A stretch of DNA of 64,000 nucleotides from Candidatus Thorarchaeota archaeon (GCA_046758445.1 JBHIAE010000013.1:5252-69251); one strand, 5' to 3'. Shown: positions 4,452-14,374, numbered from the stretch's first letter. Numbers and translations: made by a program. Notes: generated by a model from the sequence alone, not told the origin.

Positions 4452-4934
4452 TTGGAGGATGAGAAAGTGGCTTGGCAGATTCGTCCGGCTCAAGAAAGAG
4501 ACGTTGCCAAAATCAAAGCCATTGAGAACGGGAGTTTTCCGAGACCGTGGGATGAGAGTCTCTTTCGCATTATTGGTGCATGGAGAGGGCGTGTGCCGAT
4601 AGAACGTAACAGAGTCATCTTCATGTACGTGGCAGAAACTGATGAGGAACTTTTGGGATACGTCGTTTGGGAGGAAGATGTGACCGAGAGAATTGGACAT
4701 ATCCTCAACGTTGCTGTAAAGACAGAGAGAAGAAGAGAGGGACTAGGAACAGCACTAATCAATCATGCATTTGATACGCTACGCTCACACAGAATCAATT
4801 CATGTAGACTTGAAGTCCGTCCAAGCAACACTGCCGCACGTCGACTATACGAGCGTGCGGGCATGGCCGCACAGCATGAGGAGAGCGGATACTACGGAGA
4901 TGAAGACGCAATCGTCTACAGCATCAAACTATGA
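4452..4934 (+). CDS. GNAT N-acetyltransferase, RimI-like
   Basis: 160 aa; GNAT core motifs (LNVAVKTERRREGLGTALI; acetyl-CoA binding R-x-x-G-x-G/A); 3' end overlaps convergent gene by 6 nt. Confidence 0.7.
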   Translation: MEDEKVAWQIRPAQERDVAKIKAIENGSFPRPWDESLFRIIGAWRGRVPIERNRVIFMYVAETDEELLGYVVWEEDVTERIGHILNVAVKTERRREGLGTALINHAFDTLRSHRINSCRLEVRPSNTAARRLYERAGMAAQHEESGYYGDEDAIVYSIKL

Positions 4935-7900
4935 CCCGCTCTTGCGTCCACTAGTCAGTCGTGGTCCAAGGAAGTGTTGATACAACTGGAGGTATGAAGA
5001 CTCAGTTGACACAATCGCAAGGTCAGAGTCAGACTCCTCTGACCCTCCGATAAGAATCTCGCTGTCATCTTTGACCGCCAGTGTGGTTGGCGACGCTGTC
5101 TGCCAGATCCTCCAGCCCTTCAGGGCTTGGAGTTCAGGGCTGGCCTCCTCCATCTCAGGGATTATGAGTATCCTTCGCCTTGGAGCCTTTGACTTTGCTA
5201 GCTTCTTGAGATTAAGGCAGTCAAGACTTAGAACTGAAATGACCACTGATTCCTCTGCTCTGGCGACCATGTCCTGCATGTGAGCACAGATCTCACCACT
5301 TCCGGTGACATACCAAGTCCTATCACTAGGAACTGCCAACAACTCTTCTCCGGAGGCCTTGACAGCTTCTAGCGTTTCCATAGTTCGATTGGTGATTTCA
5401 GAAACCGCTTGAACAGCCTCATCAATCTGAGATTCGATAGTGCTCAGGGTCTTCTTCTGCTCTGTCCCCCACTGCCGCATTGTCTTGTCCACGTGTTCTG
5501 CAAGACTATTCAGCGCATCATTCCTTCCCTGTCGAAGAACTGACATTCCCTCTTTTGTATCTGTAGCGGCCTTGGAAGCACTAGCACCTATCTCGGAGTT
5601 CTTGGATGTGAGATCGCTTCTAACCTTCTCCACGAGTCGTGCTGTTTCGCCGCCAAGATGGGTCTTGAGATCTAGACCGATTGACTCGAGCTTTCTGGCC
5701 GAAAACTGGTTTGAAACGAGGACTCCTTGTTTGGCTTCAGAGAGAGCATTCTCAACGTGTTTAGTTGACAGGGTTGAGACTCGCTCGAGAAGTCCATGTG
5801 CTTCTTCCGCGACTGGTTGAGCCAACTCCGTGAACTTTGAGAACGAGGAGTCAATCGCCGCCGTGGCTCCATGACAGTATTCATCGACCTTCTCTGTGGC
5901 TTCGGCAACAGACGCGTCTATAATTCCCTTGAATGTCTCTGGCATGTCAGAGAATCCCTCTCCTACGTTTGTTAGTAGGCTCGTTGATTTCTCTCCGAAT
6001 TCGGTTGACAGTTTCCGAAGACTAGCCTCCGATTTCTTGAGTAGTGCTCGACTAAGGCCTTCGTAATCCTTGAGCCTCTTCTCGCCTCGTTCTCCAATCT
6101 TCGAGGCCACCTTGTCCGCGGCCTTCGTAATGCCACTTGCCAACGTGGCCATCTCTGCGTTCAATTTGGTCCCAAGCTGTTCCAACGAGGATGTAAGATT
6201 TCCTGCCGCTGTTTCTAGTCCTTCGGACGCTCCGATGAATGCCAACGCAACCTCGTTTCTTCGCTCCTCTATGGCCGCCACAGCCTGTTCTCTTGTGGTT
6301 CTTACTGCTTCCGACCTAGACGCGTCCTTCTTGGCAAGAGAAGTTTGAAACTTCTCAACTCTCTCATTGGAAGATTTCAAGAGCTTAGACGCAAGACCAT
6401 CCATCTTCTTGCTTGTACTTGCCAAAAGCTTCTCGCGTGATTCATCTTGTTCAGTGAAGTATGTGTCGATGACGGACTTTATCTTCGCAGTATTCTTCGA
6501 CATTGAGCTTTCAGCAGTGTCTGTGACACTTACCACTCTCTCCGCTATGCTGTCGCGTGCACTATTGACAGTAGATTTGAACTCCTTCGAAACTTGCACG
6601 ATGTTGTCCGCGAACTGGCGAATCGTCCCAGTTTCCATTTCCTTGAGAGCATCTTGTGTGCTTCTCACAGCATCTTCTATGCCACTGAGAGCATCGGCCA
6701 TAGACTTGGAGATCTCAGTCCGCTTCTCCACAGTAAGATCCTCGAGCGCCTTCCTCATGCCATCAACAGCTCCGACGAGCTCATCTACCTTGGCATTCAG
6801 CTCCACCGAGAACTCCTGTTGCAGTTTCTGAGAATCCTCTTGGAGAGATCCAATCTCTGACTTTAGCGACCCCTTGAACTCCGTGTGAACCGAGGCAATT
6901 AGATCGCGAGCTTCGGTGGTCTGACTAGAAAGGAATCCGTTGAAAGTGGCTTCAATGCTCTTCGTCAGATTGATGAACTGTCTGGTTATGTCCTCAACTT
7001 GAACATGGAACTCATTGCGTATGCCTTCCGAGTGTTCGTCAATTCGAGCTACCTGCTCTTCAATTGCCTGGTCGATCTCCTTCTGAACTCTGTTAGCATG
7101 TGAAGTCAAAGCACTCACACCTGACTCGAGTCGTTTGTCAACACGTTTGTTGAAACTGCCATACAGTGCCTTAGCCTCAGTTATCTGAGACTTTGTAGTT
7201 TCGGCGTAACCAGCTATGACTTCAGAAAGTCGTTCGCCGACATCAGCTTCGAACTCGTGCGTGATCTTCTTCACAGAAGTGAGAGCAGACTCCTGCTTCG
7301 TTGCAGAGGTTTTCATCACGGTGTTGTATGCCGACTTGAGTCTGCTGTTTATCGCCTCAGCGAGCGTGTCAATCTCTGAGGCTTCTGTGTCCAAAATCGC
7401 ACTTACTTCCTCCACTACCTGAGTGAGATTCTGGTTCATGGACGTGAGCGCACGCTTTGACCAGTTGTCGATATCGGTAATCGCCTGAAGATTGGCCTTG
7501 TCAAGCTTCTCCTCATGGGCATTTAGTTGCTTCTCCAGAAGCGCTAGAGTGGATTTTCGACAAGTTCCAAGGTTTGCCTCGAACTCGGTATGCACATTTG
7601 TCGCCATATCCTTCAAGGACTCATACTCATCGTCGAACACTTTCTGAGTCTTATCGATGAGACCGGAGGCTGCTGTCTTTACGTTTTCCAAGTACTTTGT
7701 TTCTGTAGACTGGATCTGGTCAAGTTGGGACTTCAGCGACTGAGTTGCCACGTCCATGAACGCCGCAACTTCAGCCTTCCATTCTTCAACATCTGCTCTC
7801 ACTGTTTCAGAGAGTTGAATTGCCTCCTCAATGCGAGTCTTGGCGAATTCTGCCTCTTCGCGAACTTGGTCTCGATTCCTTGATATCATCTCGTTCAGCG

Positions 7901-8840
7901 ACCCTTCGCCTGCCAGATAGCTAGAACTCAATTGTGCGTCAAGCTTAGAGAGCATCGCCTCAAGGTCCTCGCTGGCCGTGGTCAACGCCGCTATTGCACT
8001 GTCAGATGCACCTGTTGACTCTTCAGAGATCCTGCTACTCATCTGTTCCCCAGAAACCTGTACAGCTCTTCTTGATTCCTGTAGAGTGGAAGACAATGAG
8101 GCACTGAGGGATGCGACTAGAGCTGCAATCTTACTCCTTAGTCCATCCACGGCAGCTGCTGACGATTTGTGCTCAGCAGTCAGAACTCTCTTGAAACTCC
8201 TCGTAGTCTTATTGAGTTCGTGATCGAGAGCCTTCTGGCTCTTGTCAAGTTCTTGTTGGAGCGCGGTGAGTCGAGTGCCAAGGCCTTCATCAAGAGTCAC
8301 ATCTAGACCTGTCAACGCTTCTTCGATACTTTGTGCGAACTCGCTGAGGACCTGGGTCGCAAGAGTGGCGACGGTATCAATCTGGGATTGGACGGTGTCA
8401 ATCGTGTTGGACTCGTAGCTCTGTAAAGCAACTCTTCCATCATCGATGGTATTCTTATGGGACTCTAGAACCACCTCGATGTTTTGGTCCACCCTCTCGA
8501 ACTGGGCCTCGAACAACTTCCGAGTTTCCTCAGAGAATGAGCCCAGATCTCCTTTGATAGAAGAGAGCACATCATCTAATGCAAGAATCGTAGGAGCCAA
8601 TCGATAGACTTCTACCACGCCATCTACCTTTCGAATCAAGCCCTTCTTTTCCAGACGCTTGAGCGCACTTCCCACCTTCCTCCTTGACTCACCAGTGATC
8701 TCGACGATTCCCCCAGATGTAAGATTACCCCCAAGGAATATCGAGAGAACCACTTTGGCCTCAATATCCGTTATTCCAAGATTCCTCTTTAGTACTGGAA
8801 TACTCTCAACTACTGTACTTCCACTCAAATCCAATCCCAC
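4929..8840 (-). CDS. Giant (1303 aa) coiled-coil protein with N-terminal winged-helix (TrmB-like) DNA-binding domain and small C-terminal globular domain
   Basis: N-term ...DIEAKVVLSIFLGGNLTSGGIVEITGESRRKVGSALKRLEKKGLI (wHTH); ~1000 aa of heptad-like E/K/Q/L/A/S-rich sequence; no Walker A/B so not SMC/Rad50. Confidence 0.6.
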   Translation of the reverse strand: MGLDLSGSTVVESIPVLKRNLGITDIEAKVVLSIFLGGNLTSGGIVEITGESRRKVGSALKRLEKKGLIRKVDGVVEVYRLAPTILALDDVLSSIKGDLGSFSEETRKLFEAQFERVDQNIEVVLESHKNTIDDGRVALQSYESNTIDTVQSQIDTVATLATQVLSEFAQSIEEALTGLDVTLDEGLGTRLTALQQELDKSQKALDHELNKTTRSFKRVLTAEHKSSAAAVDGLRSKIAALVASLSASLSSTLQESRRAVQVSGEQMSSRISEESTGASDSAIAALTTASEDLEAMLSKLDAQLSSSYLAGEGSLNEMISRNRDQVREEAEFAKTRIEEAIQLSETVRADVEEWKAEVAAFMDVATQSLKSQLDQIQSTETKYLENVKTAASGLIDKTQKVFDDEYESLKDMATNVHTEFEANLGTCRKSTLALLEKQLNAHEEKLDKANLQAITDIDNWSKRALTSMNQNLTQVVEEVSAILDTEASEIDTLAEAINSRLKSAYNTVMKTSATKQESALTSVKKITHEFEADVGERLSEVIAGYAETTKSQITEAKALYGSFNKRVDKRLESGVSALTSHANRVQKEIDQAIEEQVARIDEHSEGIRNEFHVQVEDITRQFINLTKSIEATFNGFLSSQTTEARDLIASVHTEFKGSLKSEIGSLQEDSQKLQQEFSVELNAKVDELVGAVDGMRKALEDLTVEKRTEISKSMADALSGIEDAVRSTQDALKEMETGTIRQFADNIVQVSKEFKSTVNSARDSIAERVVSVTDTAESSMSKNTAKIKSVIDTYFTEQDESREKLLASTSKKMDGLASKLLKSSNERVEKFQTSLAKKDASRSEAVRTTREQAVAAIEERRNEVALAFIGASEGLETAAGNLTSSLEQLGTKLNAEMATLASGITKAADKVASKIGERGEKRLKDYEGLSRALLKKSEASLRKLSTEFGEKSTSLLTNVGEGFSDMPETFKGIIDASVAEATEKVDEYCHGATAAIDSSFSKFTELAQPVAEEAHGLLERVSTLSTKHVENALSEAKQGVLVSNQFSARKLESIGLDLKTHLGGETARLVEKVRSDLTSKNSEIGASASKAATDTKEGMSVLRQGRNDALNSLAEHVDKTMRQWGTEQKKTLSTIESQIDEAVQAVSEITNRTMETLEAVKASGEELLAVPSDRTWYVTGSGEICAHMQDMVARAEESVVISVLSLDCLNLKKLAKSKAPRRRILIIPEMEEASPELQALKGWRIWQTASPTTLAVKDDSEILIGGSEESDSDLAIVSTESSYLQLYQHFLGPRLTSGRKSGS

Positions 8841-8873
8841 CGTCTTACGTTGATGATGCTGTTCTCGAGCAAG

Positions 8874-9698
8874 CTATTTTGCTCTCTTGCGCCGTTTGAG
8901 TTTTGAAACTCTATCAAACAACACGAGCAGGTATTGTACCTCGAATGGATCTGCTGAACCATCCGAGATCACTTCGGCCTCAATATGCATCGAACTGTCC
9001 GTAGCATCCACAAAGAAGTCCTCATAGGCGCTGAGTGCGTCATCCTCCAGAAGAGGCTTGGTCTTTGTAGACTTGGCACTAGCGAGGTCCATCGTAAGAA
9101 GCCACCAGGTGTCAGTTGTATCTGATGCCGAGGCATCTATGTCATAGTGTTTGGAGAGCAGTTCTACATACAACTTGAAGATCTGGAAGTCTTCCACTTC
9201 ATGGTGCCGTGGATTGATGATTACGATGCCACGAGCAAAGTCGAACTGAAACAATAGGTCATCTCCTGCGACCAACTTGACATTGCCCTCCTGAGCTGTT
9301 GTGGTCTTGTTCCAAATCTTGCCAAATCTGGAAACGAAGTGCTTCAACGAGCTGACTCTGAGAGTTGACAAGAAGTCCTTGGTCTGGAGTCGACGATCAA
9401 CCATCCCTCTGCCCTTACGTTCCAGTACGAAACGTTTGACTTGCTCAAGATATTGACTATAGCAGAAGCTAGGAAGATTCTCTGGATCTATACCCAATTC
9501 AATCAGCATGTTGAGGAAGTTGCGGTCTTTGCACGCTGGACGCACCGTGCAGCCCAGACGGTTCTCTTCACACTCTTTGCACTTCTCCTCATGTAGTTCT
9601 ATGAACTCCTTGGCAAGCTGCTTATCCGACACCTTGTCGAGCAGCGCAATTCTCGATGCAAAACCGGTGCTACGTTGTTTCGAACTCATTACTTCCAT
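8874..9698 (-). CDS. Hypothetical protein with Cys4 cluster (CKECEENRLGCTVRPAC)
   Basis: 274-aa ORF, co-oriented 34 nt upstream of giant coiled-coil gene; C-terminal KRRKRAK basic tail. Confidence 0.4.
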   Translation of the reverse strand: MEVMSSKQRSTGFASRIALLDKVSDKQLAKEFIELHEEKCKECEENRLGCTVRPACKDRNFLNMLIELGIDPENLPSFCYSQYLEQVKRFVLERKGRGMVDRRLQTKDFLSTLRVSSLKHFVSRFGKIWNKTTTAQEGNVKLVAGDDLLFQFDFARGIVIINPRHHEVEDFQIFKLYVELLSKHYDIDASASDTTDTWWLLTMDLASAKSTKTKPLLEDDALSAYEDFFVDATDSSMHIEAEVISDGSADPFEVQYLLVLFDRVSKLKRRKRAK

Positions 9699-9885: not shown

Positions 9886-10911
9886 TCAGCTGCCCTTGGC
9901 AATCTCCTTTAGCTTGGATGTCCAAGCACGGATTTCAGTATTCAATACGGCAATGTCGTTCTCATTGAGGGTGGCCGTAGGCGGATAGGACTTCAATTCT
10001 CTGGCTTTCTTTCCGAACTGGAAGAGCACAGGAGTATGTCCCTTGATCATCAGTGTCAACTGGTCGCGAACCTCTTCTAAGGCTCCAGCCATTTCCTTGG
10101 CTTCAGTCTGTGGAGTTACCATCTCAAGAAGATCAGCCATTACATCATCAATGGCTGATGGCGTAACCTTCTTTGGTTTCATCTTCACTTTGTCAGCGGG
10201 TTCCTTCTCTTTGGGCGCCTTCTTCGCAGGCTTCTTAGCTGCCTTGGCTGCGGGCTCCGAGGCTGCTGAGGCTTGAGCCATGCTTGCTGCTTCTTCCAAG
10301 GCCTCAGTCATCTTCTCAAGGGACAGGTTGTACTTGCGTTCGAGGTCATCTAGCTGCCGCACAATGATTCCCACAATCTCTTTTGTTTCTGACAAGGAGT
10401 TAGACAAGTCTTGGATATTGTCTTCTATTGCCGAAACACCCGCCACGTACTGCTGGAGATCGTCAATCTTCTTGTCTACGCCGTCAAGCGAACCGGCTCC
10501 CTTGACCTCGTTGCCGATATCCACAACGTTGACAAGAATATCATCCATCTTCTTGAAGAGAACCTCCATCTCCTTGGAATCTCGAATCTCAATCACGGTC
10601 GAATCAATCCCCTTGATAGAATCAGCCAGTCCATCCACCTTCTTGCCGATGCTCTCGGAGGTCTTCGTTTCGCCCAACTTCGCGAGTGTAGTGTTGAGTT
10701 CTTGGACTGATTTGAGAAGATCCTCAATCTTGGACACTGGAGTGACTTGGGACTGTACATCCTTGATCACTTCTTCTATTCCTTCTACTTTCTTCTCGAG
10801 ATCCGTAGCAGCAATGAGTCCTTCTACCTCTTTCCTAATCTTAGTGGTTTCCTCACCAATCTTGTCAATCTTCTTTTCGAAACTCTGAAGATATTCCTTC
10901 TCGCTCGTCAT
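9886..10911 (-). CDS. Coiled-coil protein with internal lysine/alanine-rich (histone-H1-like) linker
   Basis: 341 aa; N-terminal ~220 aa heptad-rich; ...AAKAAKKPAKKAPKEKEPADKVKMKPKK...; C-terminal ~90 aa globular. Confidence 0.4.
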   Translation of the reverse strand: MTSEKEYLQSFEKKIDKIGEETTKIRKEVEGLIAATDLEKKVEGIEEVIKDVQSQVTPVSKIEDLLKSVQELNTTLAKLGETKTSESIGKKVDGLADSIKGIDSTVIEIRDSKEMEVLFKKMDDILVNVVDIGNEVKGAGSLDGVDKKIDDLQQYVAGVSAIEDNIQDLSNSLSETKEIVGIIVRQLDDLERKYNLSLEKMTEALEEAASMAQASAASEPAAKAAKKPAKKAPKEKEPADKVKMKPKKVTPSAIDDVMADLLEMVTPQTEAKEMAGALEEVRDQLTLMIKGHTPVLFQFGKKARELKSYPPTATLNENDIAVLNTEIRAWTSKLKEIAKGS

Positions 10912-11032: not shown

Positions 11033-11884
11033 CTATATCTTACTGGCACGGATGAAATCTAATCCGCACTCTTCGAGGATTGGGAAGATACGGGCCTTGT
11101 TCTCCGCATTAGTTCCCTTCCAGTCTATGATAGCTCGAGAAACCTTCTCCTTGCTCCGTGATATCATATGCTGGATCACATCAACATCAATCTCGTTCAG
11201 GGCGTACTTGGGAGCGATGTGACCGATTCTTACATCTTTCTCTAGAACTAGCTTGTTGAACTTGCTAGCATAGTGCGTGCCACCAAAACCAATAGAGGAT
11301 TCTGACTCAATTGGCGCTCGAATGCATTCCATGACTGCTGCCGCAACAGACCTTGCTCCCTCTTCATGTTGCCAGTAGGCTTCGCCACTGCCTAGTTCGA
11401 CAAAGAGTAGAGGTGTATTCATGGTTGTAGGGCCGTGATGGGTCACTTCAAGCGTGATATCGAACTCCTCCAGCCGGCGCCTGGCTCTCTCCTTCTGTAG
11501 GCTCCGTAAGGCCACGGACATAAGACTTGCTATGGACACAGACAGGCTCCTTGGGGCACCTCCATAGCTAGCATCATCTCCGAAGTTGCCTGTACTATGA
11601 ACGAGCAGGGCAGGCCTGCCCGACTGTGCTCTGTGGCGAGAGCAGAAGATGAACACCTCTGCTTCGAAATGTTGCTCTAGATGATCTGCGAATATCATGT
11701 CGCGCTCTGTTGTGATCAGCAAAGCTGAACTTCCAAGTGAGTAGACTGGATTTCCCTCGAATGTTTCACCGGTTTCTTCGAAGCCATGTTCATCGCGTAG
11801 TAAGTTGCTTATGGTTTGACTCGCTATGTCTTGAGTCGAGGAAACAAGCACCCTCATTTGGATCATCCGTTTCTCAATCGACAA
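11033..11884 (-). CDS. dtdA: D-aminoacyl-tRNA deacylase, archaeal type (DtdA/DTD2)
   Basis: 283 aa; strong match by recollection to Pyrococcus DtdA (..FEGNPVY..; SRHRAQSGRPALLVHSTGNFG; EVTHHGPT; DWKGT). Confidence 0.8.
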   Translation of the reverse strand: MSIEKRMIQMRVLVSSTQDIASQTISNLLRDEHGFEETGETFEGNPVYSLGSSALLITTERDMIFADHLEQHFEAEVFIFCSRHRAQSGRPALLVHSTGNFGDDASYGGAPRSLSVSIASLMSVALRSLQKERARRRLEEFDITLEVTHHGPTTMNTPLLFVELGSGEAYWQHEEGARSVAAAVMECIRAPIESESSIGFGGTHYASKFNKLVLEKDVRIGHIAPKYALNEIDVDVIQHMISRSKEKVSRAIIDWKGTNAENKARIFPILEECGLDFIRASKI

Positions 11885-13118
11885 TACACTTCTCTAGCAG
11901 GGGCTCCAATGATATCTCAAGCTCGAGTGTCACCTTCTCCTCAAAGGACTCCAGAATCTCTGACTCAATTCGGTCCTTATGGTCCCTAACTCGAGCTAGC
12001 TCACGTTCAATATCGTCCCTGATTCGAAGCATATCGCTGCGATGATAGTCAAGATTCTTCTGGGCCTCTTCAAGCTCGCCCTGGAGCCGATCGCTCTCCG
12101 CGTATACATCAGAACCTGCGTATTTCCGGCGTTTCTCCTCCAGCTCTTTAGCTTTCTGCTGCAGCTCCTGGAGAGAACCACTGCTGATAGCGTTCACCTC
12201 TTCAATTGCACGTCTTCCTAGTCGGTCTTTTAGAGAGAGCTTGCCTGTTTCAATTGCTTCCCTCAGTCCCCCAAGTCCTTCAAGTAGTCCCGGATGTCCG
12301 TCGGGCTCCTCGACGATTGCCGTATAGGGGTCCTCGAAGTAATCAAGGAGAGCTCTTTGGCCAGCGGCACCCACTCGCACACCGGTGTCACGTTGGAGGA
12401 ACTTCTTCACCTGCTTCTTCAGAGGATTCATCTTCATCCTTAGAACACCAGCCAAACGATCCGCCTCTTCGTCAAGCGTGAGTAGCCCTGCCACGTCGGA
12501 CGTTTCTGCGAATGTATTGTAGGCGGTCTTCGCCGAATCAAAATCAACTTTGGCCGTGTCAATCTTCATCCTCGTCTGGCGAATCTGGTCTTCAAATAGC
12601 TCTTCGCTGTGACCCAGGTCTTGCAAGGTCTGAATTCTGGTTCCAATCCTCTCCAGGTCTTTCAGCCAGTTGAACTCAAAAAGGAGCTTTTGAATGCGGT
12701 TCATCTCATTCATGAGCTCTTTCATGGCAGAATCAATCTGCTTGATCGTCGTCTTGTGCCTCTTGTCCATCCGCCTGATCCAGCGGGCGCCAGCACCCCA
12801 AAGCTCCTGAATGAAAGCCCTGATCTCCTCCTGAAGATCCTCCATACTCTGGTGGGTCACCTCTTTGTCGACATAGAAGTCGGCAGTGATGTCCTCGACC
12901 TTCATGGCGAATCTGGTGGCAATGCCCATGGAATCTGGTTCATCCTCGCCAGTCTCCCTAAGGTTTCTTGAGAGATCCTTTATGTCTTTGAGAGTCCTCT
13001 CTACAACCTTGTAGCTCCTCTCAGCCTTCTTCTTGAATTCCTTAGATCGATTTGAGAGGCGTTTTCGATACCACTTTTGAAGCTGGTCAACAGTTAGAGT
13101 CGTCATCTGGGGTGCCAC
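11874..13118 (-). CDS. Coiled-coil protein, function unknown
   Basis: 414 aa, mostly predicted alpha-helical/coiled-coil; stop overlaps dtdA start by 11 nt (operonic). Confidence 0.4.
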   Translation of the reverse strand: MAPQMTTLTVDQLQKWYRKRLSNRSKEFKKKAERSYKVVERTLKDIKDLSRNLRETGEDEPDSMGIATRFAMKVEDITADFYVDKEVTHQSMEDLQEEIRAFIQELWGAGARWIRRMDKRHKTTIKQIDSAMKELMNEMNRIQKLLFEFNWLKDLERIGTRIQTLQDLGHSEELFEDQIRQTRMKIDTAKVDFDSAKTAYNTFAETSDVAGLLTLDEEADRLAGVLRMKMNPLKKQVKKFLQRDTGVRVGAAGQRALLDYFEDPYTAIVEEPDGHPGLLEGLGGLREAIETGKLSLKDRLGRRAIEEVNAISSGSLQELQQKAKELEEKRRKYAGSDVYAESDRLQGELEEAQKNLDYHRSDMLRIRDDIERELARVRDHKDRIESEILESFEEKVTLELEISLEPLLEKCIVD

Positions 13119-13852: not shown

Positions 13853-14374
13853 TCACCTCATATCTTCAGGAATCTGAAGTCCCATTGAGTCTAGCTTGCC
13901 AAACCCTTGGCTGTAAAGACTCATGTTGTGCCGGATCTCTTCCTCAGTTTCTGTTACAGTAGAAAGGTATGAGTTTATCTCATCCAGTCCACTCTCTTTG
14001 TACTCTTCCATCATTGAATAGACAGTATCACTCATGCGGAGCATTAGGTCTTGTATGACAGTGCTGAGATCGATCATAGACTGGACTACCTCAACTGCGT
14101 CATCATCAGGCATGTAGGGAAGAAAGTCCTCAAGTGCGACACCAGCCTCTCTGCATCGGTCGACCCGACCAGGAATCACTTCATCATACATTGAATGCAT
14201 CCATCCCAGACGCTCCTCGTGAGTCAGAGTTCCAAGGTTCTCGAGAGAGAAGTAACCAGTCCACGGGCCAAACTCAGAGCTCTCATAGGAGATCCAGTTG
14301 TCAAAAGCACCCAGAACACGATGCCAACCCTCTACGGTCTTCGACATCAATCCATCCCGAGATTCTGTCATCAT
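13853..14374 (-). CDS. Hypothetical protein
   Basis: 173-aa ORF with coding periodicity, no recognised motifs. Confidence 0.35.
   Translation of the reverse strand: MMTESRDGLMSKTVEGWHRVLGAFDNWISYESSEFGPWTGYFSLENLGTLTHEERLGWMHSMYDEVIPGRVDRCREAGVALEDFLPYMPDDDAVEVVQSMIDLSTVIQDLMLRMSDTVYSMMEEYKESGLDEINSYLSTVTETEEEIRHNMSLYSQGFGKLDSMGLQIPEDMR

Follow-up and report, generated by a model that had tools for sequence, protein, structure and literature searches.

The locus and its giant gene

The window analysed here, a 64,000-nt stretch from a Candidatus Thorarchaeota archaeon, encodes on its minus strand a protein of 1303 amino acids (4929..8840; GTG start, stop codon at 4929–4931) that consists of an N-terminal winged helix-turn-helix (wHTH), a long hendecad rod and a C-terminal domain resembling that of TrmBL2. 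The reading frame coincides exactly with the one given in the first-pass annotation, has no internal stops in translation, and has a base composition close to that of the remainder of the window. All full-length homologues are colinear and 1288–1327 aa long (an identical protein and 16 homologues; 36 full-length representatives; 43 genomic loci), which refutes a merge of several genes, and length is essentially unchanged among 69 full-length homologues from Thorarchaeota. The gene is single-copy, with one copy per genome at 43 loci in Thorarchaeota-type genomes, and its neighbours are housekeeping genes with preserved synteny. A regular-expression search of the 1303-aa protein detected no Walker A, Walker B, LSGGQ, HKD or CxxC motifs, and neither Pfam nor NCBIfam returned a match to SMC or Rad50; with the ATPase, signature and hook motifs absent, the earlier exclusion of SMC, Rad50 and SbcC holds.

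A second conserved gene (8874..9698, minus strand), encoding a protein of 271–274 aa, lies 33 nt upstream on the same strand. It is found directly upstream of the giant gene at most of the loci inspected, in the Thor, Frey, Baldr, Hel and one more lineage. Alignments of the partner protein reveal five invariant cysteines, among the invariant positions C40, C43, C50, C56 and F78-C79-Y80, together with an INPR motif. Its 117 homologues are either unnamed or 'hypothetical', the named ones carry Asgard labels, and no known domain was recognized in it by Pfam or PADLOC. This conserved partner was not part of the first-pass annotation, and neither were the hendecad nature of the rod, its antiparallel pairing and the TrmBL2-like character of the C-terminal domain.

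Relatives of the giant protein, of about 800–1794 aa, as well as forms of about 350 aa, are encoded in many Asgard lineages. Colinear orthologues of about 1302–1308 aa occur in Freyarchaeota and further lineages, members of the superfamily were found in the Hel, Hod, Baldr, Atabey, Sigyn and Odin lineages, and all named members of the giant family bear Asgard labels. Homologues are listed in databases only as 'hypothetical', as 'HTH domain-containing' or, automatically, as 'TrmB', and the JGI label for the giant protein is 'sugar-specific transcriptional regulator TrmB'. Literature searches found no published description of the giant family, in keeping with the initial impression that it is not a described one.

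The terminal domains

The N-terminal winged helix noticed at first reading is a TrmB-type wHTH (aa 17–83; 8592..8792, minus strand), recognized by Pfam as PF01978 with an E-value of 3.4e-8 and a score of 33.7 bits against a gathering cut-off of 25.6. The same domain has been precomputed for 15 of 17 homologues, and the alignment contains two invariant motifs, GGN.T.GG and KG...G.V.VY. In our reading of the alignment consensus, the position of the Tyr-Asp pair in the recognition helix of TrmB (PMC4158304) is not kept in the giant family. Judging from this domain, the giant protein is likely to bind DNA.

At the other end, the small C-terminal domain that had been proposed turned out to be a separate alpha/beta domain of about 134 residues (aa 1170–1303; 4932..5333, minus strand), modelled by AlphaFold at pLDDT 72 with a phospholipase D (PLD)-like fold of the TrmBL2/TrmB type. 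A Foldseek search with this model gave as best hits TrmBL2 structures 5BQT and 5BPD (E 4e-8), followed by PLD3, NucT and TrmB, with TrmB structures 2F5T and 3QPH matching at about E 1e-4; in predicted fold, the domain is thus closest to the chromatin protein TrmBL2. PDB searches gave no direct sequence match to TrmBL2, and the best PDB match of a broad sequence profile was to residues 86–201 of TrmB 3QPH (E 0.04). PF11495 (Regulator_TrmB) matches 12 of 14 members weakly and below its cut-off, with an E-value of 0.089 for this protein and 3e-4 at best. Because the alignment is limited to positions 3–121 of this 233-position profile, the protein lacks the sugar-binding subdomain, which in TrmB comprises the region of G320/E326. 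The HKD motif is absent from the PLD-like domain according to the regular-expression search.

The hendecad rod

The two terminal domains are joined by a predicted uninterrupted alpha-helical rod (aa 88–1168; 5337..8579, minus strand) of about 1,080 residues, or some 98 hendecads, with core positions a/d/e/h. The first-pass annotation had described this region as a coiled coil of about 1000 residues; a continuous helical rod it is, but its repeat is the hendecad and not the heptad. Hydrophobic periodicity is strong all along aa 89–1145, with peaks at 11, 5.5, 3.67 and 2.2 residues and no heptad peak at 3.5 residues, and every one of the top autocorrelation lags is a multiple of 11. The large majority of superfamily members with at least 500 aa likewise show an 11/3 periodicity and hydrophobic residues at a, d, e and h. 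AlphaFold, with low confidence, predicts helix over essentially all of aa 105–1167; its model of aa 104–1303 is unreliable (pLDDT 48, pTM 0.28) and yields no topology.

From aa 89 to 305 the 11/3 phase stays constant, and it does so again over aa 330–1145, a run of more than 800 residues. The only register change lies between them, at aa ~310–330 (7851..7913, minus strand), where the phase moves from some 135 to some 235 degrees, equivalent to a slip of roughly one residue; the mirror site of this change falls near the invariant E917/G919, and low-confidence AlphaFold helix breaks are seen at aa 323–326 and 916–920. Sequence identity among the 69 homologues drops to 22%, and the indels in the rod amount to one deletion of a single residue; the 1,080 residues include one conserved proline.

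The most conserved segment of the whole protein is the rod centre (aa 596–660; 6861..7055, minus strand), and in the conservation profile the middle of the rod is more conserved than the DNA-binding domain. F611, F622 and F633 form a ladder that is symmetric about F622, and H603, H612 and H652 are invariant in a 14-sequence alignment.

Antiparallel self-pairing of the rod

Charge covariation, charge complementarity and the symmetry of conservation within the Thorarchaeota family show the rod to self-pair in antiparallel orientation, with residue i opposite residue ~1244–1247 minus i and the centre at F622. The mirror-centre scans covered 700–900 possible centres in an alignment of about 26 effective sequences and used ad hoc statistics. 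The three lowest values of charge covariance were found at i+j = 1243, 1246 and 1247 (z −4.9, −3.9 and −3.1), the product of mean charges had its minimum at i+j = 1246 (z −3.8 to −4.8), and i+j = 1243 ranked second by MI-APC. The same sums came first or second in six of the eight scorable 90-residue windows with i between aa 95 and 605, and across the register change at aa ~310–330 the best mirror sum goes from 1246 to 1247/1243. The conservation profile is mirror-symmetric about sums of 1247–1251, the conserved glycines G188 and G1055 add up to 1243, and in the antiparallel register W354 lies opposite G890 and F505 opposite G738. A control for parallel lags went down to z −4.4 at a single lag with few pairs, and neither the Gly/Pro mirror test nor the scan for small residues opposite aromatic ones was significant. 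Since single-sequence scans in other lineages gave only noise, the pairing is shown for the Thorarchaeota family alone. In one natural variant (P0030), aa 512–743 are present as a diverged tandem duplication (75% identity, centre 627.5) that is nearly symmetric about the dyad, a length change of the kind that antiparallel pairing tolerates.

The covariation fits pairing between two chains and folding of a single chain alike, as does the symmetric duplication in P0030. In the latter case, the chain would turn back at about aa 622–635 to form an antiparallel arm of ~80 nm like those of SMC, Rad50 and MukB; one head would combine the wHTH with the C-terminal domain of the same chain, and the invariant apex would be the tip at which the protein dimerises or binds a ligand, in analogy to a hinge or hook. 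We regard such a hairpin as rather unlikely, although the most conserved segment does sit at the fold-back point, G628 and N634-G635 are kept in most Thorarchaeota members, and AlphaFold places a low-confidence helix break at aa 637–641. The register centre at 622–626 precedes these Gly and Asn-Gly sites by 6–13 residues and is itself strongly helical (TRQFITL), and the hendecad rows pass straight through aa 605–660 with the amphipathic phase unbroken. Neither the divergent members nor the colinear orthologues have Gly, Asn or Pro turn residues at the centre, and the protein contains neither a hinge domain nor a CxxC hook. Furthermore, the homologous helix of TrmB pairs between subunits, in antiparallel fashion, through F81/I91', F84/L88', L88/F84' and I91/F81' (PMC4158304). 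Because there is no conserved turn motif at the centre, we favour an antiparallel homodimer of ~160 nm over a hairpin of 80 nm: pairing is likely to be between chains, and the rod, probably ~160 nm in length, would have DNA-binding heads at both ends.

Comparison with known systems

The first-pass annotation likened the protein to a TrmB-family regulator with an inserted rod. That likeness is borne out by the wHTH, the TrmBL2-like C-terminal fold, the weak PF11495 match, the match to 3QPH and the TrmB-like antiparallel pairing. As in TrmB, the sugar-responsive regulator of P. furiosus (3QPH, 2F5T), a PF01978 wHTH is followed by an antiparallel helix, and the C-terminal domain of the giant protein can be aligned with the first subdomain of the TrmB effector domain. 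In contrast to TrmB, the giant protein lacks the sugar-binding beta-barrel subdomain and has a rod some 35 times longer than the TrmB helix. TrmBL2 (5BQT, 5BPD, 5BPI, 5BOX), a chromatin protein of Thermococcales that binds DNA non-specifically and shapes chromatin (PMC4158304), has the same order of parts, an N-terminal TrmB-type wHTH, a helix and a PLD-like C-terminal domain. However, it is only 264 aa long, its helix spans a few dozen residues where the giant protein has a hendecad coil of ~1,080, its C-terminal domain is only 15–17% identical to that of the giant protein, and all named giant-family members carry Asgard rather than Thermococcales labels. TrmBL2 is further characterised as an abundant protein whose sequence-non-specific DNA binding gives rise to filaments or thick fibres.

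The closest working analogue of the proposed bridging model is Sso10a1, a wHTH chromatin protein of Sulfolobus that bends and bridges DNA and has an antiparallel coiled coil (PMC4941522); it has a mass of ~10 kDa, its coil spans a few nanometres, and it lacks a C-terminal domain. The arms of SMC, Rad50 and MukB likewise place a very long antiparallel coiled coil between DNA-binding ends, but the giant protein lacks an ABC ATPase head as well as Walker and signature motifs, it has neither a hinge nor a zinc hook, its rod is hendecad- rather than heptad-based, and its pairing is probably between chains instead of within a hairpin. The 11-residue repeat is shared with the peripheral stalks of rotary ATPases and with the tail of ZorA, whose PADLOC profiles match the rod via their tail regions; unlike the giant protein, these have no wHTH or TrmB-type domain. 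No counterpart to an antiparallel self-pairing hendecad rod of ~98 repeats was found.

The Pfam TrmB domain, the JGI label and the relationship of the C-terminal domain to the TrmB effector-binding domain would also fit an ordinary TrmB-like regulator, with an effector-sensing head that represses specific promoters and a rod that is a lineage-specific elaboration with no architectural role. This appears very unlikely: the sugar-binding subdomain is missing, as it is in TrmBL2 (PMC4158304), and a single-copy, indel-free rod of 1,080 residues that is retained across a whole class, with a middle conserved beyond the DNA-binding domain, is hard to explain as dispensable. In addition, if the rod is an extended dimer that keeps its two wHTHs a full rod length apart, they cannot bind next to each other on one palindromic operator.

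Pfam labels the rod as Apolipoprotein A1/A4/E (PF01442; 10 stretches, 102.1 bits with the cut-off at 90) because 11-residue amphipathic periodicity drives the score. Apolipoproteins A1/A4/E consist of tandem, proline-punctuated amphipathic helices of 11/22-mers and are secreted lipid-binding proteins. The periodicity would suit an apolipoprotein-, LEA- or perilipin-like protein whose helices rest on the surface of a membrane or lipid and anchor DNA to it, which we consider highly improbable. The narrow hydrophobic stripe is of the coiled-coil kind and takes up roughly 3 of 11 positions (a, d/e, h), proline punctuation is lacking, the signals of antiparallel helix-helix pairing are specific, and position-specific conservation is far above that usual for such repeats; the translation has no visible signal peptide or transmembrane-like stretch and begins with the wHTH. 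Finally, an artefact of genes fused by assembly or frameshift errors, refuted by the same uninterrupted length in 69 independent assemblies and at odds with the uniform base composition, or a mobile or defence component such as Zorya, suggested by PADLOC and NCBIfam matches to ZorA that are confined to coiled-coil tail positions (e.g. 255–492 of 692) in a protein with no MotA/ExbB membrane domain and no ZorB–D among its syntenic housekeeping neighbours, can be dismissed as next to impossible.

Proposed structure and role

We hold, with middling confidence, that the protein is a giant DNA-binding protein of the TrmB/TrmBL2 type, an antiparallel homodimer whose dimerisation helix has grown into the ~1,080-residue rod. 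The short antiparallel helix that follows the wHTH in TrmB would have expanded here into an unbroken hendecad coil, and two chains most likely run antiparallel over their whole length about a two-fold axis at F622. The resulting rod would be nearly straight and would end on both sides in a TrmBL2-like head, in which the wHTH from one chain joins the PLD-like C-terminal domain from its partner chain. With each residue having a specific partner on the other strand, nearly any indel would throw the register, which would account for the fixed length and the lack of indels.

This anatomy fits the DNA-anchored structural or tethering role proposed at first reading. The protein would act as an ATP-independent architectural element that keeps a fixed long distance between two DNA sites, or between DNA and some other structure, and the cysteine-rich protein encoded upstream may dock at the invariant centre of the rod. 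Its part would be that of a bridge or spacer in chromatin and not that of a classical regulator controlled by an effector.

Identification and conservation of the giant gene

The open reading frame at positions 4929–8840 (-) of the window, previously proposed to encode a 1303-aa protein, was recovered exactly in the ORF listing and by translation from a GTG start codon, and its base composition is like that of the remainder of the window. A homologue search found an identical protein and 16 homologues, an exhaustive profile search found about 30 more full-length representatives of the family, and, when one genome of each species was scanned, 43 loci were detected, a single one per genome, the closest of which encodes a protein with 91% identity. 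Nearly all of these loci carry the label Thorarchaeota; for a few it is Promethearchaeota or uncultured archaeon, and for one it is Hermodarchaeota. Complete members of the family are all 1288–1327 aa long. The giant ORF is a genuine gene: the possibility raised in the first-pass annotation, a merge of several genes, is rejected because uninterrupted homologues of matching full length are encoded in many genomes, at 43 single-copy loci. The sole indel in the rod among 69 sequences, some with as little as 22% identity, is a one-residue deletion in one of them. The gene is convergent with a GNAT acetyltransferase gene (4452–4934, +), the 3′ ends of the two overlapping by 6 nt. A convergent overlap with an acetyltransferase gene of this type is also seen in L001, a homologous Thorarchaeota locus (41% identity), where that gene occupies 13871–14353 and the giant gene ends at 13894.

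Terminal domains

Residues 17–83 of the giant protein match the TrmB winged helix of Pfam above the gathering cut-off. In 12 of 14 members, the last ~134 residues give a weak match to Regulator_TrmB of Pfam, with only the first half of the profile covered. For the AlphaFold model of this C-terminal domain (pLDDT 72), the closest structure is that of TrmBL2, a chromatin protein of archaea (E 4e-8), followed by PLD-fold proteins and TrmB, and the best PDB match of a broader sequence profile is TrmB 3QPH residues 86–201 (E 0.04), an alignment that spans the TrmB coiled-coil helix into the effector domain. The C-terminal profile found no match among PDB sequences, the N-terminal sequence searched singly against the PDB returned only generic winged helix-turn-helix (wHTH) proteins (E 0.1 or worse), and no HKD motif was found in the giant protein. 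Because of the TrmB-type wHTH and the C-terminal Regulator_TrmB and TrmBL2 matches, the layout appears TrmBL2-like, that is, a wHTH, a helix and a PLD-like domain lacking the sugar-binding subdomain, in support of the earlier description of a TrmB-type regulator with an inserted rod. Walker A/B, LSGGQ and CxxC motifs were sought in the giant protein and none was present, so an SMC or Rad50 reading is rejected and the first-pass exclusion of SMC, Rad50 and SbcC holds; the likeness is limited to long antiparallel coils, and the protein fails each defining test for those families.

A rod of 11-residue repeats

Residues ~88–1168 are helical, with a repeat of 11 rather than 7 residues. The hydrophobic power spectrum of the rod has peaks at 11 residues and the corresponding harmonics but no signal at 3.5, the list of top profile autocorrelation lags begins with 22, 11, 33, 66, 110, 88 and 44, and hydrophobic residues occupy the a, d, e and h positions of a canonical hendecad. 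From aa 89 to 305 the 11/3 phase does not change; a single shift of about one residue follows at aa 310–330, after which the phase is again constant to about aa 1145. There is a single conserved proline, and conservation along the entire protein is highest in the rod's middle part (aa ~596–660). The rod is a natural case of ~98 hendecads in phase, with a register that can be read from covariation, and is to our knowledge among the longest uninterrupted coiled coils of any prokaryote; the myosin II rod is comparable in length (our estimate, at ~0.15 nm per residue).

The 11-residue periodicity also accounts for two database matches. Membership in the Pfam Apolipoprotein family is rejected, as the protein has neither the proline punctuation nor a signal peptide, and so is membership in the ZorA family, since the NCBIfam and PADLOC matches are to the ZorA tail only and the MotA domain is missing. 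A defence-system reading of the gene, considered through the PADLOC search, is rejected as well.

Antiparallel self-pairing of the rod

Self-pairing was evaluated by scanning every possible mirror centre, each expressed as the sum i+j of two residues set opposite each other, in a non-redundant alignment of 63 sequences (~26.6 effective). The three lowest of 900 charge-covariance values were at i+j = 1243, 1246 and 1247 (z -4.9, -3.9 and -3.1), and the product of mean charges had its minimum at 1246. By mutual information in a reduced alphabet (MI-APC), 1243 ranks second, and five of the eight top sums lie within 1242–1250. The same sums rank first or second in six of the eight scorable 90-residue windows (i between aa 95 and 605), and the best sum, 1246 on one side of the one-residue phase shift, becomes 1247/1243 on the other. 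The conservation profile has mirror symmetry about 1247–1251, with z only ~2.7, and we use it as supporting evidence only, as direct-lag correlations of like size exist.

Not all scans showed this register. Three Gly pairs seemed at first to share one midpoint, but this failed the alignment-wide Gly/Pro mirror test (best sum 1049, z 3.1), which leaves as anecdotes the conserved G188 and G1055 (sum 1243), the near-invariant W354 opposite G890, and F505 opposite G738; F611, F622 and F633, all conserved, are placed symmetrically around F622. The scan for small residues opposite aromatic ones was not significant, core-volume and hydropathy covariation had no peak at 1243–1247, and single-sequence charge-complementarity scans of 54 superfamily members gave noise except in four Thorarchaeota sequences.

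In one homologue, P0030 (1537 aa), a stretch of 232 residues equivalent to aa 512–743 of the window protein, centred at 627.5, is duplicated in tandem. The two copies are gapless yet only 75% identical, which argues that the duplication is real and old and not an assembly error. Its boundaries match two mirror-related helix breaks, aa 512–517 and 715–735, in an AlphaFold model (pLDDT 48), and a central duplication of this kind is the sole kind of length change that preserves an antiparallel register. Because charge covariance, mean charges, MI-APC, window scans, symmetry and P0030 agree, there is a fairly strong case that the rod of the Thorarchaeota family is an antiparallel, self-paired one. 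Such pairing would account for the near-absence of indels and provides a clear reason for the frozen length of the rod.

Hairpin or dimer

The covariation cannot separate an antiparallel homodimer from an SMC-like hairpin of ~80 nm, as a chain folded back on itself explains it equally well. We favour the homodimer and regard the hairpin as less likely, though a serious rival, because hendecad rows and the amphipathic phase continue without a break through the centre, and because the Gly and Asn-Gly found nearby sit 6–13 residues off the register centre and are absent from the divergent members and colinear orthologues examined. Moreover, the homologous helix of TrmB pairs antiparallel between subunits (F81/I91′, F84/L88′, L88/F84′, I91/F81′; PMC4158304). 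The AlphaFold model of aa 104–1303 is all helix with unusable topology (pLDDT 48, pTM 0.28). An extended homodimer would be ~160 nm long (our estimate: 1,080 × 0.15 nm), and at each end the wHTH would come from one chain and the C-terminal domain from the other.

Distribution among Asgard archaea

Searching with a C-terminal domain profile yields 121 representatives. Apparently complete members range from ~800 to 1794 aa, in addition to a ~350-aa short form, P0100. An organism name was available for 14 of 20 sampled clusters, and all 14 are Asgard: Thor-, Frey/Sigyn-, Hel-, Hod-, Baldr- and Atabeyarchaeia or generic Promethearchaeota. The homologue search with a broad alignment, which yielded fragments only, also found a partial Odinarchaeota entry. 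Sampled members, as read from their sequences, start with the same type of wHTH, and the great majority of those of at least 500 aa have the 11/3 periodicity. P0053 (Freyarchaeota), P0063 and P0070 (~1302–1308 aa) are largely colinear with the Thorarchaeota profile, with which P0063 aligns end to end. Other forms differ in length: 1732, 1316 and 1245 aa under the Helarchaeota label (P0062, P0074 and P0125), 968 and 804–808 aa under Hodarchaeota (P0065 and P0079), and 1140 aa in P0097, also labelled Thorarchaeota. The 350-aa P0100 has both ends in common with the 1732-aa Helarchaeota protein, so that the two differ in length only within the central part of the rod. The 359-aa P0051 is a chimera, its first ~200 residues being transposase-like and its last ~160 near-identical to the C-terminus of P0053, which suggests a gene disrupted by an insertion sequence in one genome.

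The partner gene and its neighbourhood

Directly upstream on the same strand (8874–9698, - in the window) lies a gene for a protein of ~270–300 aa that is found in the Thor-, Frey-, Baldr- and Helarchaeota loci and in one further lineage. Alignments show that these proteins are homologous and that Cys40, Cys43, Cys50, Cys56 and an F-C-Y motif do not vary among them. Neither Pfam nor PADLOC gave a match; the family comprises 117 members, "hypothetical" where named, and its named organisms are Asgard. By alignment, the upstream genes of the Atabeyarchaeia and Hodarchaeota loci have no clear relation to the partner. In the Atabeyarchaeia complete genome (CP147779.1, locus L003, 4328–5068 and 11742–13395), no cysteine-rich partner of the usual kind can be recognised, and the giant gene has as neighbours KaiC/RecA-like ATPase genes (PF06745) and a STAS, anti-sigma and SpoIIE-type signalling cluster, with an Arf/Rag-type small GTPase gene close by.

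Two genes upstream of the giant gene, 9886–10911 (-) encodes a helical protein of 341 aa with a Lys/Ala/Pro-rich linker AKKPAKKAPKEKEPADKVKMKPKK and weak coiled-coil-type matches only (Spectrin, DUF948, LmuB, JetC). L001 has a 315-aa gene at the equivalent position (8018–8965), a match by position, and the other Asgard lineages examined have none there. The gene at 11033–11884 (-) encodes an archaeal-type D-aminoacyl-tRNA deacylase (PF04414, E 1.5e-65) and belongs to a co-directional five-gene block conserved between the window and L001. A 414-aa protein encoded at 11874–13118 (-), with a 409-aa gene at the same position in L001 (5816–7045), has a weak Pfam match to VPS28 (E 0.0023; 18.1 bits, cut-off 24.5), which may be coiled-coil noise or may indicate a divergent ESCRT-I-like protein.

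Proposed function

The closest working analogue of the giant protein, in combining a wHTH with an antiparallel coiled coil, is Sso10a1, a wHTH protein of 10 kDa whose dimers form by way of an antiparallel coiled coil and which both bends DNA and bridges it (PMC4941522). The best-supported reading is that of an architectural DNA-binding strut, for which we infer DNA binding and bridging, the oligomeric state and docking of the partner. The antiparallel dimerisation helix of a TrmBL2-type protein would have grown into a long and stiff spacer, locked in its length, between two DNA-binding heads, one at either end. The claims about structure are fairly strong, and the proposed function is directly testable: the model predicts the rod length in electron microscopy, cross-link sums of ~1244, bridging of DNA at one fixed distance and binding of the partner at aa 596–660.

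All named database entries of the protein are "hypothetical", "HTH domain-containing" or automatic TrmB assignments, and no description of such a protein was found in the full-text literature, a coverage that largely leaves out subscription journals; to that extent the first-pass view that this is not a described family stands. The domains belong to a known family; what appears to be new is the architecture, the antiparallel rod of ~98 hendecads and the conserved module of two genes. The gene joins a chromatin-type DNA-binding head to a very long coiled coil and is single-copy in 43 Thorarchaeota-type genomes.

The chromatin and cell architecture of Asgard archaea are intensively studied for their bearing on the origin of eukaryotes. 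Speculatively, and with low confidence, these archaea may share an ATP-independent device of chromosome architecture, a rigid, antiparallel ~160 nm hendecad homodimer with TrmBL2-type DNA-binding heads at both ends and an invariant dyad clamped by the dedicated cysteine-rich partner. Such a device would fix the long-range distance from one DNA segment to another, or from the nucleoid to some other structure of the cell. If so, it would be the prokaryotic equivalent of the long coiled-coil proteins that act as scaffolds and tethers in the nuclei of eukaryotes, found in the archaeal lineage closest to them.
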